Made by a program: the position numbers and the translations under genes. Shown here one piece after another: positions 1 to 49,190 of a stretch of 64,000 nt of DNA. Source of the stretch: Escherichia coli (GTDB lineage: Bacteria > Pseudomonadota > Gammaproteobacteria > Enterobacterales > Enterobacteriaceae); assembly GCF_003018235.1 (NCBI RefSeq), contig NZ_CP027437.1. One strand, written 5' to 3'. Below the pieces are notes generated by a model. That model saw only the letters and a program-made list of their open reading frames with translations, did no database searches and was not told the origin of the DNA. Numbering within the stretch: position 1 is the first letter of the stretch; every line of letters begins with the position of its first letter.

Positions 1-23
1 GCCCAGGCGTCAGGAGATAAAAG

Positions 24-959
24 ATGGCTAATCCGCTATATCAGAAACATATCATTTCCATAAACGACCTTAGTCGCGATGACCTTAATCTGGTGCTGGC
101 GACAGCGGCGAAACTGAAAGCAAACCCGCAACCAGAGCTGTTGAAGCACAAAGTCATTGCCAGCTGTTTCTTCGAAGCTTCTACCCGTACCCGCCTCTCT
201 TTCGAAACTTCCATGCACCGCCTGGGTGCCAGCGTGGTGGGCTTCTCCGACAGCGCCAATACATCACTGGGTAAAAAGGGCGAAACGCTGGCCGATACCA
301 TTTCGGTTATCAGCACTTACGTCGATGCGATAGTGATGCGTCATCCGCAGGAAGGTGCGGCGCGCCTGGCCACCGAATTTTCCGGCAATGTACCGGTACT
401 GAATGCCGGTGATGGCTCCAACCAACATCCGACGCAAACCTTGCTGGACTTATTCACCATTCAGGAAACCCAGGGGCGTCTGGACAATCTCCACGTCGCA
501 ATGGTTGGTGACCTGAAATATGGCCGCACCGTTCACTCCCTGACTCAGGCGTTAGCGAAGTTCGACGGCAACCGTTTTTACTTCATCGCGCCGGACGCGT
601 TGGCAATGCCGCAATACATCCTTGATATGCTCGATGAAAAAGGGATCGCCTGGAGTCTGCACAGCTCTATTGAAGAAGTGATGGCGGAAGTAGACATCCT
701 GTACATGACTCGCGTGCAAAAAGAGCGTCTGGACCCGTCCGAGTACGCCAACGTGAAAGCGCAGTTTGTTCTTCGCGCCAGCGATCTCCACAACGCCAAA
801 GCCAATATGAAAGTGCTGCATCCGCTGCCGCGTGTTGATGAGATTGCCACCGATGTTGATAAAACGCCGCACGCCTGGTACTTCCAGCAGGCAGGCAACG
901 GGATTTTCGCTCGCCAGGCGTTACTGGCACTGGTTCTGAATCGCGATCTGGTACTGTAA
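24..959 (+). CDS. pyrB: aspartate carbamoyltransferase catalytic subunit
   Basis: 311-aa ORF; carbamoyl-phosphate binding motif STRTR and HPLPR motif visible in translation; followed 12 bp later by pyrI. Confidence 0.95.
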
Positions 960-971
960 GGGGAAATAGAG

Positions 972-1433
972 ATGACACACGATAATAAATTGCAGGTTGA
1001 AGCTATTAAACGCGGCACGGTAATTGACCATATCCCCGCCCAGATCGGTTTTAAGCTGTTGAGTTTGTTCAAGCTGACCGAAACGGATCAGCGCATCACC
1101 ATTGGTCTGAACCTGCCTTCTGGCGAGATGGGCCGCAAAGATCTGATCAAAATCGAAAATACCTTTTTGAGTGAAGATCAAGTAGACCAACTGGCATTGT
1201 ATGCACCGCAAGCCACGGTTAACCGTATCGACAACTATGAAGTGGTGGGTAAATCGCGCCCAAGTCTGCCGGAGCGCATCGACAATGTGCTGGTCTGCCC
1301 GAACAGCAACTGTATCAGCCATGCCGAACCGGTTTCATCCAGCTTTGCCGTGCGAAAACGCGCCAATGACATCGCGCTCAAATGCAAATACTGTGAAAAA
1401 GAGTTTTCTCATAATGTGGTGCTGGCCAATTAA
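972..1433 (+). CDS. pyrI: aspartate carbamoyltransferase regulatory subunit
   Basis: 153-aa ORF immediately downstream of pyrB; C-terminal zinc-binding cysteines (CPNSNC...CKYC) visible. Confidence 0.95.
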
Positions 1434-1450
1434 TTGCGGTTGGTAATAAA

Positions 1451-1482
1451 AGTCTGGCTCCCTATAATGAGCCAGACTTTTT
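1451..1482 (+). terminator. intrinsic terminator after pyrBI (10-bp stem AGTCTGGCTC/GAGCCAGACT, then T-run)
   Basis: Perfect inverted repeat 1451-1460 / 1469-1478 followed by TTTTT; read directly from sequence. Confidence 0.55.
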
Positions 1483-1505
1483 ACCGCTGTAATAAAGGAG
1501 AAATC

Positions 1506-1892
1506 ATGAGCAAAACTATCGCGACGGAAAATGCACCGGCAGCTATCGGTCCTTACGTACAGGGCGTTGATCTGGGCAATATGATCATCACCTCCGGTCA
1601 GATCCCGGTAAATCCGAAAACGGGCGAAGTACCGGCAGACGTCGCTGCACAGGCACGTCAGTCGCTGGATAACGTAAAAGCGATCGTCGAAGCCGCAGGC
1701 CTGAAAGTGGGCGACATCGTTAAAACCACCGTGTTTGTGAAAGATCTGAACGACTTCGCAACCGTTAATGCTACCTACGAAGCCTTCTTCACCGAACACA
1801 ATGCCACCTTCCCGGCACGTTCTTGCGTTGAAGTTGCCCGTCTGCCGAAAGACGTGAAGATTGAGATCGAAGCGATCGCTGTTCGTCGCTAA
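1506..1892 (+). CDS. ridA: RidA (YjgF) enamine/imine deaminase
   Basis: 128-aa product starting MSKTIATENAPAAIGPY; ORF track start 1434 is an upstream in-frame extension; RBS AGGAG before the ATG at 1506. Confidence 0.9.
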   Translation: MSKTIATENAPAAIGPYVQGVDLGNMIITSGQIPVNPKTGEVPADVAAQARQSLDNVKAIVEAAGLKVGDIVKTTVFVKDLNDFATVNATYEAFFTEHNATFPARSCVEVARLPKDVKIEIEAIAVRR

Positions 1893-1950
1893 TCTTGACG
1901 GAAATCCGGGCTATCATGCCCGGATTAAGTCTGATGACAAAAGCAAAATC

Positions 1951-3259
<1,309 letters not shown>

Positions 3260-6074: not shown

Positions 6075-6340
6075 AAGGAGTCCCTCCGCACTGTCTGAAA
6101 CAGTACAGAAATGTCTTCAGGCGTGGCGAAGCCTTACCTGAAGGTAATAAAGCTGAGCAGGGACGTTAAAACGTCACGGCCTTACGCATCCGGTAACGCC
6201 GTGAAAAGACGGGCTTACCGGAAAAGTTTTAATCTCCGTCGAGGGAGAGGCGTGGGATCAGGTTCCATATAACCTCCGGTAAGTGAAAAAAGCGCCGCAA
6301 ATAATAAGGAGAATCCAATAATATTCGTAGCATCTATGGC
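6075..6340 (-). promoter_or_regulatory. mgtA 5' leader (Mg2+/proline-responsive attenuator region)
   Basis: Long untranslated leader upstream of mgtA containing the mgtL leader ORF; extent approximate. Confidence 0.5.
6215..6268 (-). CDS. mgtL: mgtA leader peptide (17 aa, [17 protein letters not shown])
   Basis: Last 17 codons of the spurious 113-aa ORF 6215..6556; ATG at 6268-6266; proline-rich. Confidence 0.7.
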
Positions 6341-13361: not shown

Positions 13362-13826
13362 ATGAACTTTCATCAGTACTATCCTGTCGACATCGTCAAC
13401 GGCCCCGGCACTCGCTGCACCCTGTTTGTCTCCGGGTGTGTTCATGAATGCCCCGGTTGCTATAACAAAAGCACCTGGCGGGTAAATTCCGGTCAGCCAT
13501 TTACCAAAGCAATGGAAGACCAGATCATTAACGATCTAAATGACACTCGCATCAAACGCCAGGGGATTTCCCTCTCCGGCGGCGATCCGCTGCATCCGCA
13601 AAACGTGCCGGATATTCTGAAACTGGTACAACGAATCCGCGCCGAATGTCCGGGTAAAGACATTTGGGTGTGGACAGGCTATAAACTCGACGAACTCAAC
13701 GCTGCGCAAATGCAGGTTGTTGATTTGATTAACGTACTGGTCGACGGCAAATTTGTGCAGGATTTAAAAGACCCTTCCCTGATCTGGCGCGGCAGCAGCA
13801 ATCAGGTGGTGCATCATTTGCGTTAG
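13362..13826 (+). CDS. nrdG: anaerobic ribonucleotide reductase activating protein (radical SAM)
   Basis: 154-aa ORF; cysteine cluster CTLFVSGCVHECPGC. Confidence 0.9.
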   Translation: MNFHQYYPVDIVNGPGTRCTLFVSGCVHECPGCYNKSTWRVNSGQPFTKAMEDQIINDLNDTRIKRQGISLSGGDPLHPQNVPDILKLVQRIRAECPGKDIWVWTGYKLDELNAAQMQVVDLINVLVDGKFVQDLKDPSLIWRGSSNQVVHHLR

Positions 13827-14117
13827 TCACTCATCCAGCCGTTTAGTCGCGTCTTCATAAACGGCTGAGTTCTCTCTCTTACCAATAGCTATCACCAACA
13901 CGAGCAACTCTTTATCGTTAACCTGATAAACCAGGCGATATCCCTGTGTGCGCAGCTTAATTTTGTAGCAGTCCGGTAAATCCCGCAGTTTAGCCGATGG
14001 ATTGCGCGGCCTTTTCAGCACATCCTCAAGCTTTTTTTTAAATTGTTCCCGGACTGTCACGCCCAGTTTTTGCCACTCTTTCAGCGCCCGCGGATCAAAC
14101 GCCAGCTCATAGTTCAT
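13827..14117 (-). CDS. RelE/ParE-family mRNA interferase toxin
   Basis: 96-aa product from ATG 14117 (MNYELAFDPRALKEWQKLG...CYKIKLRTQGYRLVYQV...IGKRE); about 60% identical by eye to K-12 RelE as recalled; overlaps the antitoxin stop by 11 nt. Confidence 0.8.
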   Translation of the reverse strand: MNYELAFDPRALKEWQKLGVTVREQFKKKLEDVLKRPRNPSAKLRDLPDCYKIKLRTQGYRLVYQVNDKELLVLVIAIGKRENSAVYEDATKRLDE

Positions 14118-14349
14118 CCAGTCGGACCTTAATGGCCTCTTGTGGGTTGGCCAGTCGTTCCCTGACAGTGCGTAACAAGGCTTCTTCACTATCACTGACA
14201 GTGAGCGTTTTTACCGGCATTCGTCCATTTTCCGCAACGTACTGAAACAGCAGTCGCACTGCTTCAGTAGGCGTGATATTTAATTTTTCCAGCACCGCAT
14301 AAGCCTCATTTTTCAGTTTGTCATCCAGGCGGACGTTAAGTGTGGCCAT
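14107..14349 (-). CDS. RelB/DinJ-family antitoxin
   Basis: 80-aa ORF MATLNVRLDDKLKNEAYAVLEKLNITPTEAVRLL...; strong resemblance to K-12 RelB as recalled; RBS GGAGG upstream. Confidence 0.8.
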   Translation of the reverse strand: MATLNVRLDDKLKNEAYAVLEKLNITPTEAVRLLFQYVAENGRMPVKTLTVSDSEEALLRTVRERLANPQEAIKVRLDEL

Positions 14350-14373
14350 TATGCCTCCGGTAATTATGAAAAG

Positions 14374-14406
14374 TGTAATGCATTATAGCATTACATATGC
14401 ATTACA
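14374..14406. promoter_or_regulatory. candidate RelB/RelE operator: three copies of TGTAATGC/GCATTACA
   Basis: TGTAATGC at 14374-14381, GCATTACA at 14388-14395 and 14399-14406 (direct repeats one helical turn apart), 25-57 bp upstream of the antitoxin ATG. Confidence 0.45.
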
Positions 14407-14507
14407 TTCATTTCTGGAAAACGCCTCGCAAAAATGAGGACGACACGCAGGAATATGCCGTGGTGAAGATAGATATTGCGGTGATTTTACGAAGGGAGAA
14501 GAAAGCG

Positions 14508-14533
14508 TTGGGCGGTAACGTTTCACCGCCCAA
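14508..14533 (-). terminator. hairpin TTGGGCGGT/ACCGCCCAA downstream of cybC
   Basis: 9-bp stem with 8-nt loop immediately after the cybC stop; U-rich tract on the minus-strand transcript is imperfect. Confidence 0.35.
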
Positions 14534-14540
14534 TAAGGAA

Positions 14541-14930
<390 letters not shown>

Positions 14931-14982
14931 TCACTTCCTTTTTTATTATGAAGATTTGGCGCGGCAGGTCGCGCCAGTTTTT

Positions 14983-16335
14983 TTACTGCCCGGCGATTTT
15001 CATCTCCGGCAACAGCACAGAACCACACTGTATATTACTGCGTGTTTCAATATCGTTACCGACGGTGACAATATTGCGCCACATATCTTTCAAATTACCT
15101 GCGATGGTGATTTCACTAACAGGATACTGAATTTCGCCATTCTCTACCCAGAAGCCCGCTGCACCACGGGAATAATCACCGGTAATGGCACTCACGCCCT
15201 GGCCCATCAGCTCCGTCACCACCAGCCCGGTGCCCATCTCTTTAAGCATTTGTTCGAAGCTTAGCCCTTGTCCGGCAATCCGCCAGTTGTGAATACCGCC
15301 CGCATGTCCGGTGCTTTTCAGCCCCAGTTTCCGCGCCGAGTAGCTGGTCAGCAGCCACTGAGTCAGGATGCCATCTTTGACGATATCGCGGCGCTCGGTG
15401 CGCACACCTTCGCTGTCGAATGGCGTCGACGCCAGCCCTTTCAGCAGATGCGGATGCTCTTCAATGGTCAGCCAGTCCGGCAGAATTTGTTTACCCAGCG
15501 AATCCAGCAGGAAGGTAGATTTACGGTAAACCGATCCACCCGCTATCGCCCCCACCAGATGGCCAAAAAGCCCGGTTGCCACTTCATTGGCAAAAATGAC
15601 CGGCGCTTTCATGGTGGAGAGTTTACGCGGTGACAGGCGCGATAAAGTACGGCGAGCACAGTCGGCCCCAACCCACTCTGGCGTTTGCAGATCGCTCATC
15701 GCACGACCAATGGTGTAGGCGTAATCACGCTCCATATCGCCATTTTCTTCAGCAATTACACAGCTGGAGAGCGAATGACGCGTAGAGCAGTAACCCTGCA
15801 ACATGCCGTGGCTGTTGCCAAAAACTTTGACACCGTAGTGGCTGTTAAAGCTGCCACCTTCGGTATTGGTGATGCGTTTGTCCGCCTGCAATGCTGCCTG
15901 TTCTGCGCGGGCCGCCAGTTCAATGGCTTCATCCGGGGAAACTTCCGCAGGGTGGAACAAGTCGAGATCCGGTGCGTCAAAGGCCAGCAGCTCTTTGTCT
16001 GCCACGCCGGCACAGGGATCTGGCGAGGTATAACGGGCAATATCCAGCGCCGCCTGTACGGTGCGGGCAATGGCCTGCGGGCTTAAATCGGTAGACGATG
16101 CGCTACCTTTACGGTTCTGGTGATAAACGGTGATCCCCAGCGCGCCATCGCTATTGAATTCAACATTCTCCACTTCACCATAACGCGTGCTTACGCTAAT
16201 GCCGGTGGTCTTGCTGACGGCAACTTCTGCACCGTCCGATTTGACTGAGGCCAACTCCAGCGCAGTGGAAACTGCTTCTTCCAGAATCTTGCGCTGCGCT
16301 TCAACTTGAGAGATTACTTTCATTGCAAGTGCCAT
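14983..16335 (-). CDS. pmbA: metalloprotease PmbA (TldE)
   Basis: 450-aa ORF recognised by similarity to PmbA/TldD family. Confidence 0.9.
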
Positions 16336-23186: not shown

Positions 23187-23290
23187 CGCCAGATAAGACA
23201 CAACTGCGTCGCATCAGGCATCTCGCACAACCGCCGGATGCGGCGTGAATGCCTTATCCGGCGGCCCACAAGTCGGCATCAGGCATTGAT
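23187..23290. repeat. BIME (cluster of REP palindromes)
   Basis: GCCAGATAAGACA...GCATCAGGC, GCCGGATGCGGCGTGAATGCCTTATCCGGC and GGCATCAGGCATTGATGCCC palindromes in tandem. Confidence 0.5.
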
Positions 23291-32820: not shown

Positions 32821-32997
32821 AGTTTTTCATTTATCAGCAGTCTGAATTTTAACCCTCTGGCGGCTTTACAGTACCTTACGCTATACTAGCCACTGAAAAT
32901 GCCGGTTCACTTTCTTCGAATCGGCTTTCAATGTGTATTTCACACAAATTAATCAACTTCCCCTTCCGAGGATCTGGCCTGAAAGGTCGGATAAGAT

Positions 32998-37440: not shown

Positions 37441-37629
37441 TTCTCCACCTCGTCTCTGTGAGCGGTGTTAACTTATTGTTTTACTTATACCCTATCGTTA
37501 ATGAATGCGCCAACTGTGATAGTGTCATCATTTTCAAAGCGTAAAATTGTGGCATTCTTCACTGTTCTATAAGTAAGACGTTTATTCTCTCTTTTCTTTC
37601 GTATTCCCGATGATAAAAGGATGTCCCTG

Positions 37630-48676: not shown

Positions 48677-49190
<514 letters not shown>

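Follow-up and report, generated by a model that had tools for sequence, protein, structure and literature searches.

The relBE pair of Salmonella enterica with the locus tags STM4449-STM4450, equal to SL1344_4379-4380, was described and called relBE by Silva-Herzog et al. (2015; PMC4669091), and further papers also give STM4449-STM4450 as a relBE locus in S. Typhimurium. Arabinose-induced expression of this Salmonella relE arrested or delayed growth and co-expression of the antitoxin lessened the effect, while relE induction also raised ciprofloxacin tolerance in a dose-dependent manner and the gene itself was induced approximately 5-fold in macrophages (PMC4669091). Lobato-Marquez et al. (2015; PMC4366850) named SL4379-SL4380 relBE2ST and found RelE2ST functional in a toxicity assay. 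A retracted paper (PMC3868539) placed STM4450 among putative toxins that barely reduced the growth of E. coli. Because of the retraction this paper was given no weight, and the order in a table of PMC4669091, which lists toxins first and writes the pair as "4449 4450", suggests that STM4450 may instead be the antitoxin.

The RelBE pair of Escherichia coli K-12 (b1563-b1564) is located in the Qin cryptic prophage. Five residues of its toxin, K52, K54, R61, R81 and Y87, are those which we take to be catalytic or mRNA-contacting in the RelE-ribosome structures (PDB 4v7j, 4v7k), and they set RelE, which cleaves mRNA, apart from ParE, which poisons gyrase. RelE/StbE-type modules of the RelE/ParE family are carried as addiction modules on plasmids, for instance those of Edwardsiella, Plesiomonas and E. 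albertii. Finally, a toxin-antitoxin (TA) system, ccdO157, was reportedly found by Mine and colleagues in 2009 (a study cited in PMC7167474) on the chromosome of some E. coli between folA and apaH, with a short spacer in its place in K-12 and with decay states. It belongs to an unrelated family, with the gyrase poison CcdB as toxin.

The pair studied here lies in a 64,000-nt stretch of E. coli DNA (the window) and is very probably a chromosomal type II RelBE TA module, orthologous to STM4449-STM4450 of Salmonella. The pair is already known, being RefSeq-annotated in hundreds of genomes and having a characterised Salmonella orthologue, and is real but ordinary. A literature search on the nrdG-adjacent copy of E. 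coli found no experiment or paper, only generic surveys of TA modules. The locus is made up of the following genes and bounding element:

14107..14349, minus strand: relB-like antitoxin gene, an 80-aa ORF starting MATLNVRLDDKLKNEAYAVLEKL (RefSeq WP_000212715.1)

13827..14117, minus strand: relE-like toxin gene, a 96-aa ORF with its ATG at 14117 (RefSeq WP_001105433.1)

14508..14533, minus strand: terminator-like hairpin 3' of cybC, called by a terminator scan, with 11 pairs (6 G-C) followed by a T-rich tail

The antitoxin gene is upstream of the toxin gene, with 11 nt (14107-14117) common to both, and a GGAGG Shine-Dalgarno sequence precedes relB at 14358-14354. The 96-aa toxin begins MNYELAFDPRALKEWQKLG and ends IGKRENSAVYEDATKRLDE (...KRLDE), and its stop codon ends at 13827. 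When called mechanically, the toxin ORF runs up to a GTG at 14195 and codes for 122 aa. This longer form was dropped, as it is the 96-aa form whose full length aligns with K-12 RelE and which matches PGAP; the RefSeq/PGAP annotation of identical DNA calls the 96-aa toxin and gives product names at family level. nrdG and relE are convergent and their stop codons abut directly (13826/13827). On the other side, cybC is an intact 128-aa ORF (14541..14927, minus strand), and the hairpin at 14508..14533 bounds the relBE cassette at this side. Overall, the layout was that of a type II TA operon with the antitoxin first, overlapping genes, small proteins and one extended -10 upstream.

The antitoxin matched the NCBIfam RelB/DinJ equivalog NF008412 with 130.1 bits (cut-off 96), TIGR02384 with 73.8 bits (cut-off 45.65) and Pfam PF04221 RelB with an E-value of 6.5e-16 across residues 1-76. 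Its best structural match in the PDB was RelB chain 4fxe_A, and 2k29 (RelB N-terminal domain) was also matched. This protein is predicted to bind DNA through an N-terminal ribbon-helix-helix domain and the toxin through a C-terminal tail. The toxin scored 29.9 bits against TIGR02385 RelE_StbE (cut-off 27.9) and an E-value of 7.6e-15 against Pfam PF05016, and a phmmer search of the PDB showed the RelE chains 4v7k and 4fxe as best matches with an E-value of approximately 1e-35 over residues 1-94. BLASTP against the K-12 relBE reference, taken from NC_000913.3, showed 48% identity over the full length for RelB (E 5e-28) and 65% identity, gap-free and end to end, for RelE (E 2e-44). Given the BLASTP E-values, the NCBIfam scores and the Pfam matches, the homology is far beyond chance. 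In the ungapped alignment, K52, K54, R61, R81 and Y87 were all identical to K-12 RelE, and none of the five varied among the six sequences aligned (those of K-12 RelE, the window, two further Escherichia alleles, Salmonella and Citrobacter). Because the family matches go together with the retention of these five residues, the toxin is classed from its sequence as a RelE-type mRNA interferase and not a ParE-type gyrase poison, and it is predicted to be a ribosome-dependent mRNA endonuclease.

The preliminary description of this DNA had reported two overlapping minus-strand ORFs of 80 and 96 aa, homologous to K-12 RelB and RelE and roughly 60% identical to them, and had proposed a distinct paralogue. 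The ORFs were seen both in the ORF list and in the raw sequence, and the homology, extending to the RelB/DinJ and RelE/ParE families, was borne out by the BLASTP, NCBIfam, Pfam and PDB matches. The estimate of identity was fair in view of the 48% (RelB) and 65% (RelE) given by BLASTP and, with these values and a locus of its own, the pair is indeed a paralogue separate from the Qin-prophage relBE.

In comparison with K-12 RelBE, the window pair has the same families, lengths and architecture, but it is located in a core intergenic region and not in a prophage, and its genes overlap by 11 nt instead of 1 nt. Cross-neutralisation between the two systems is uncertain because RelB identity is only 48%. 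The toxins of the plasmid RelE/StbE-type modules are 67% identical to the window toxin, whereas the window pair is chromosomal. The ccdO157 system resembles the present pair in being a TA system in a core intergenic region with loss and decay, although it differs in family and in toxin type. The Salmonella pair is a positional orthologue: there too, relBE and nrdG converge and adjoin, the two genes of the pair overlap by 11 nt, operator and -10 are identical to those of the window, and the identities are 89% for RelB and 73% for RelE. It differs in that the E. coli RelE is longer by two residues at the C-terminus (96 vs 94 aa), and in that a PTS-regulator/KDGP-aldolase/SelA-like cluster stands between relB and cybC in Salmonella while the E. 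coli relB faces cybC directly. The link to STM4449-STM4450 was based on the locus tags in the papers, on the peptide encoded by a primer and on nrdG-adjacent contigs of other Salmonella subspecies. The published relE forward primer (PMC4669091) translates to MTYELEFDP, the same nine residues with which the nrdG-adjacent Salmonella RelE begins, and the published relB primer from the same paper matches the Salmonella relB start with 2 mismatches. The relE primer had no match at ≤3 mismatches in the retrieved Salmonella loci because these came from other Salmonella lineages.

The DNA 5' of relB reads ATGTAATGCATATGTAATGCTATAATGCATTACA on the minus strand, and the following elements were identified there:

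14374..14406, minus strand: operator-like repeats from a repeat search, direct TGTAATGC at 14406-14399 and 14395-14388 and inverted GCATTACA at 14381-14374

14382..14390, minus strand: extended -10 TGCTATAAT, read from the sequence, with TG at 14390-14389 and TATAAT at 14387-14382

14412..14427, minus strand: conserved upstream block GAGGCGTTTTCCAGAA, from alignments across six genera

The operator-like repeats lie on both sides of the -10 element and partly cover it. As -35, only a weak TGAATG (14410-14405) is present, and a sigma-70 consensus scan over 13700-15000 called no promoter, the -35 being below its threshold. Since that scan made no call, the promoter assignment rests on the extended -10 and on conservation. 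The operator/-10 block and GAGGCGTTTTCCAGAA hardly varied among Escherichia, Salmonella, Citrobacter, Enterobacter, Trabulsiella and Pseudocitrobacter, whereas the adjacent DNA diverges, and TATAAT was identical in five of the six genera. Conservation of the block against diverging flanks is good evidence that it is the promoter and operator of relBE. The GAGGCGTTTTCCAGAA block could be an upstream promoter element or the binding site of another factor. RelB presumably binds the repeats, which have the TGTAAT half-site in common with K-12 relO (TTGTAATGACATTTGTAATTACAA). The K-12 operator is a contiguous TGTAATTACA palindrome, whereas the window repeats are spaced around the -10.

At the opposite end of the pair, a further element was found within the toxin gene:

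13836..13867, no strand assigned: 10-bp inverted repeat CAGCCGTTTA / TAAACGGCTG within the 3' end of relE, from a repeat search

This inverted repeat lies 10 nt beyond the nrdG stop codon and, on the nrdG-sense strand, is followed by the CT-rich TTCTCTCTCTT. The predicted fold energy of this putative hairpin is -15.6 kcal/mol. Its stem sequence was invariant, synonymous positions included, in 7 sequences from 6 genera, and a covariation test of the same set showed only invariant pairs or changes on one side, with no covariation. The Rfam scan of the whole window gave nothing at or near the relBE locus. No terminator was visible in the gap between nrdG and relE, which leaves no room for one, and the hairpin could, speculatively, serve as the nrdDG terminator. 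With a gap of ≤9 bp, no intergenic terminator, and an invariant hairpin and CT-rich tract inside relE, a functional role of the nrdDG-relBE convergence was considered, in which the nrdDG terminator would lie inside relE and read-through or collision would modulate relBE by antisense or transcriptional interference. We regard such coupling as quite improbable. The nrdDG operon is induced anaerobically and, if true, the coupling would tie RelE activity to anaerobiosis and dNTP supply.

Contigs of Escherichia sp. MOD1, Salmonella, Citrobacter, Enterobacter, Trabulsiella and Pseudocitrobacter showed relB-relE convergent with nrdG and abutting it. The gap between the nrdG stop codon and relE was ≤9 bp across the six genera, or a slight overlap in Pseudocitrobacter, with nrdD beyond, and the 11-nt relB/relE overlap was common to all six. 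The other flank was a PRD/PTS-EIIA regulator in the five other genera as opposed to cybC in E. coli. In the protein database, toxins at 96-99% identity came from Escherichia where the source was named, and the next tier, at 70-77% identity, included proteins named Citrobacter, Salmonella and Enterobacter. Five non-Escherichia toxins whose contigs were read were 70-74% identical and all adjoin nrdG in the same orientation; these nrdG-adjacent toxins are closer to the window toxin than K-12 RelE (65%) or the plasmid copies (67%). RelB had 89-91% identity with its orthologues in Salmonella and Citrobacter, with residues 1-48 differing at one position only (E21D, in Citrobacter). Between E. coli and Salmonella, dN/dS was 0.10 for relE, 0.03 for relB and 0.04 for nrdG, and dS was saturated at approximately 2.1 for relE and relB and was approximately 1.35 for nrdG. 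Within E. coli, dN/dS was 0.16 for relE and 0 for relB. The window and Escherichia sp. MOD1 relE differ by 4 non-synonymous and 3 synonymous changes, and these small numbers give a dN/dS of 0.39.

A tblastn search with the toxin found no plasmid copy above 67% identity apart from one misfiled chromosome, and no phage copy above 69%. The single 100% "plasmid" match was rejected, being a 4.9-Mb record of a chromosome filed among plasmids. No flanking repeats, integrase, IS or tRNA were found around the pair. A mobile origin was rejected, with plasmid and phage relatives no closer than 67-69% and all places in E. coli chromosomal. In view of the six-genus synteny, the saturated dS and the lack of a close plasmid or phage relative, the simplest reading is that the locus is old, vertically transmitted and under purifying selection, and was lost by most E. 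coli. In addition, the 434 bp of relB and the relB-cybC spacer had only 2 differing positions among the window, MRY15-117 and the cryptic-clade Escherichia sp. MOD1-EC5457, while nucleotide identity for MOD1 was 92.8% in pmbA and 94.1% in cybC. Near-identity of the 434 bp next to a pmbA of only 92.8% points to an additional spread of the occupied allele among Escherichia lineages through homologous recombination.

A search of 5,426 complete E. coli genomes showed some part of the pair in 454, always at the same site, and the pair at ≥80% of its length, counted as a full pair and with both ORFs full length, in 389. The places numbered 456, all of them chromosomal and normally one per genome. 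The toxin segment was present in 393 genomes, which leaves 61 with antitoxin DNA and no toxin DNA. The nrdG-cybC interval was found in 5,425 genomes, and 4,971 of these, K-12 among them, were without the pair. The length of their short allele was uniform in every sampled row, approximately 896 bp against 1,566 bp in the window. Proportionally, about 7% of genomes have the intact pair, about 1% have no toxin DNA, a few carry toxin pseudogenes and about 92% have the short replacement allele. A strain named ST38 was among the carriers of the pair, and ST38 belongs to phylogroup D according to PMC10790755.

In K-12, the nrdG and cybC stop codons are separated by a 44-bp spacer that has a strong hairpin and is unrelated to the window sequence. 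Because of this unrelated spacer, the short allele is read as a replacement of the whole intergenic region and not as a clean internal deletion. Three decay states were also seen. In O145 strains, relE was lost between two CATCCAG microhomologies, which exist because both proteins end in RLDE, leaving a 79-aa orphan antitoxin that abuts nrdG. The 61 toxin-less genomes apparently carry an orphan antitoxin, and an intact orphan was seen in the one genome examined (O145). In strain SCPM-O-B-9504 the toxin was frameshifted and the antitoxin mostly deleted, and in an O158:H23 strain the toxin was split and matched in two places. Since most E. coli are without the module and several decay states occur, the module is under weak or lineage-dependent selection in this species.

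These counts and the comparison of the interval across genomes agree with the earlier view of the pair as accessory in E. coli (454/5,426 with any part, 389/5,426 full). It had also been stated that K-12 has no such pair at this position and annotates cybC as a pseudogene, whereas cybC is intact in the window. Inspection of the K-12 nrdG-cybC interval showed no TA pair there, MG1655 does annotate cybC (b4236) as a pseudogene, and the 128-aa ORF of the window is intact as stated. The combination of the two features, which had been taken as informative, proved coincidental. The K-12 cybC gene has lost 26 bp, and with them its start codon and ribosome-binding site; this lesion is at the pmbA-proximal, far end of cybC, approximately 370 bp from the TA site. 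In the sampled pair-less genomes outside K-12-derived strains, cybC was matched through its start codon and annotated as cytochrome b562. A link between the K-12 cybC pseudogene and the loss of the pair was rejected, as the distinct site of the lesion and the retention of cybC in the sampled pair-less genomes make the two events independent. The proposal that K-12 may carry a deletion stands in part: orthologues beside nrdG in five other genera argue for a loss, but a simple deletion specific to K-12 does not fit with the 4,971 pair-less genomes and the replacement spacer.

By analogy with K-12 RelBE, relB and relE would be co-transcribed from the extended -10 promoter, and RelB dimers and RelB-RelE complexes would bind the TGTAATGC repeats over the -10 and repress the operon. 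The C-terminal tail of RelB would wrap around RelE and neutralise it. Once the labile RelB is depleted, free RelE would enter the ribosomal A site and cleave mRNA by means of K52, K54, R61, R81 and Y87, and this cleavage would stop translation and growth reversibly. Toxicity, mRNA cleavage, autoregulation and a physiological role of the E. coli copy are presumed from the same analogy. In Enterobacteriaceae the module would have stood beside nrdDG for a long time, by vertical inheritance, and it is now being lost in E. coli.

An origin by recent horizontal insertion between nrdG and cybC in some lineages, with the short K-12-type allele as the ancestral state, would account for a pair present in only 454 of the 5,426 genomes, for a 434-bp segment that is nearly identical across Escherichia lineages despite the diverged MOD1 pmbA and cybC, and for a short allele that does not derive from the long one by simple deletion. 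The same gene order, 11-nt overlap, operator and nrdG abutment in six genera, however, speak for an ancestral locus, as do an E. coli-Salmonella dS that is saturated and at least that of nrdG, and the absence of flanking repeats, integrase, IS, tRNA and any plasmid or phage relative closer than 69%; within-genus exchange by recombination through the core flanks fits an ancestral locus as well. Recent insertion is consequently considered very unlikely. Somewhat less improbable, though still unlikely, is that the E. coli locus has lost its function and is decaying neutrally, with ORFs that are still open but a toxin that is inactive or not expressed. Absence of the pair from 92% of genomes and the decay states in O145, SCPM-O-B-9504 and O158:H23, as in ccdO157, would suit a relic, but 389 genomes have two full-length ORFs, none of the catalytic residues is altered in the six-sequence RelE alignment, dN/dS within E. 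coli is 0.16 (relE) and 0 (relB), and the promoter/operator matches the cross-genus consensus. The orphan antitoxin kept after toxin loss in O145 is also what is expected if antitoxin-only loss is not tolerated, and a tolerance of toxin loss but not of antitoxin-only loss would imply an active toxin.

According to the general literature, some chromosomal TA modules protect against phage, and the main role of the pair might accordingly be sought in anti-phage defence by abortive infection and not in addiction or stress response. RelE-like and RelB-like families are also present in PHROGs. PADLOC, however, did not match the antitoxin at all and matched the toxin only with a CARF_RelE domain below threshold (E 0.0027), the locus is outside any defence island with nrdDG, cybC and pmbA as neighbours, and its stable cross-genus synteny is atypical of defence genes, so that we hold a defence role to be very unlikely.

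Read as an old RelBE module lost by most E. coli, the locus is mildly unusual in two aspects only, its long-conserved synteny and its decay series in E. coli. The absence of the pair and the cybC pseudogene of K-12, which could be taken as a single event, are corrected here to separate ones. A chromosomal TA module without mobile-element association has kept its nrdDG neighbour, its operator and purifying selection in at least six enterobacterial genera, and this conserved relBE-nrdG locus runs counter to the view of TA modules as purely mobile accessory DNA. Finally, the series of states present at one site in E. coli, from the intact pair through orphan antitoxin and toxin pseudogene to the replaced allele, is usable for the study of module loss.

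At the nrdG-adjacent relBE loci of Salmonella, Citrobacter, Enterobacter, Trabulsiella and Pseudocitrobacter (loci L004, L005 and L007, compared over 1-3190, and L014-L017, compared over 1-2691), a gene for a large Mga/PRD/PTS-EIIA-type regulator lay upstream of relB. This regulator adjoined KDGP-aldolase/SelA-like or lactonase-like genes in these five non-Escherichia genera. Unlike these genera, E. coli lacked the regulator and the KDGP-aldolase/SelA-like and lactonase-like genes, and relB directly faced cybC.

K-12 cybC was a pseudogene owing to a 26-bp deletion around position 2375 of the K-12 locus (L002), equivalent to 14909-14934 in the window, by which the gene lost its start codon and first six codons as well as the region of its ribosome-binding site. 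The relBE site has no connection with this deletion. Between pmbA and cybC, an additional element of approximately 128 bp, which may be a repetitive intergenic element, was observed in K-12 (spacer at L002, 2376-2553) and in O145 RM11626-C1 (spacer at L003, 2783-2965). Locus comparison showed that this element was missing in the window (spacer 14928-14982) and in MRY15-117, where the cybC-pmbA spacer was 55 bp compared to approximately 180 bp in K-12 and O145.

An orphan RelB antitoxin was also observed in E. coli O145 RM11626-C1 (L003, 1966-2205). The loss of relE in O145 was an exact excision between two CATCCAG microhomologies, and the remaining antitoxin was 79 aa long with a C-terminal RLDE and a stop codon taken from relE. 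Antitoxin DNA without toxin DNA was found in a total of 61 E. coli genomes, where the intact orphan-antitoxin ORF was confirmed in O145 RM11626-C1 only and the others were scored by DNA presence or absence.

One hairpin was located wholly within the relE coding region:

13836-13880, nrdG-sense strand: hairpin with a 10-bp stem, then TTCTCTCTCTT

The stem nucleotides were unchanged across six genera, synonymous positions included, and the invariant stem showed zero covariation in this alignment. The hairpin is a possible nrdDG terminator. Elsewhere in the window, five Rfam matches were identified:

6168-6283, minus strand: Magnesium-II riboswitch
23187-23263, minus strand: naRNA4
32879-32936, plus strand: STnc450 sRNA
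37507-37629, minus strand: ES239 sRNA
49070-49154, minus strand: RpsF leader

These are usual enterobacterial chromosome features with no bearing on the relBE pair.

Finally, relB and the relB-cybC spacer (window 14107-14540, 434 bp) had only 2 differences among the window strain, MRY15-117 (L009) and the cryptic-clade Escherichia sp. MOD1-EC5457 (L011), while the cybC and pmbA flanks diverged by 2-7% in the same comparison, which suggests that this 434-bp segment is a recombination tract common to separate lineages.
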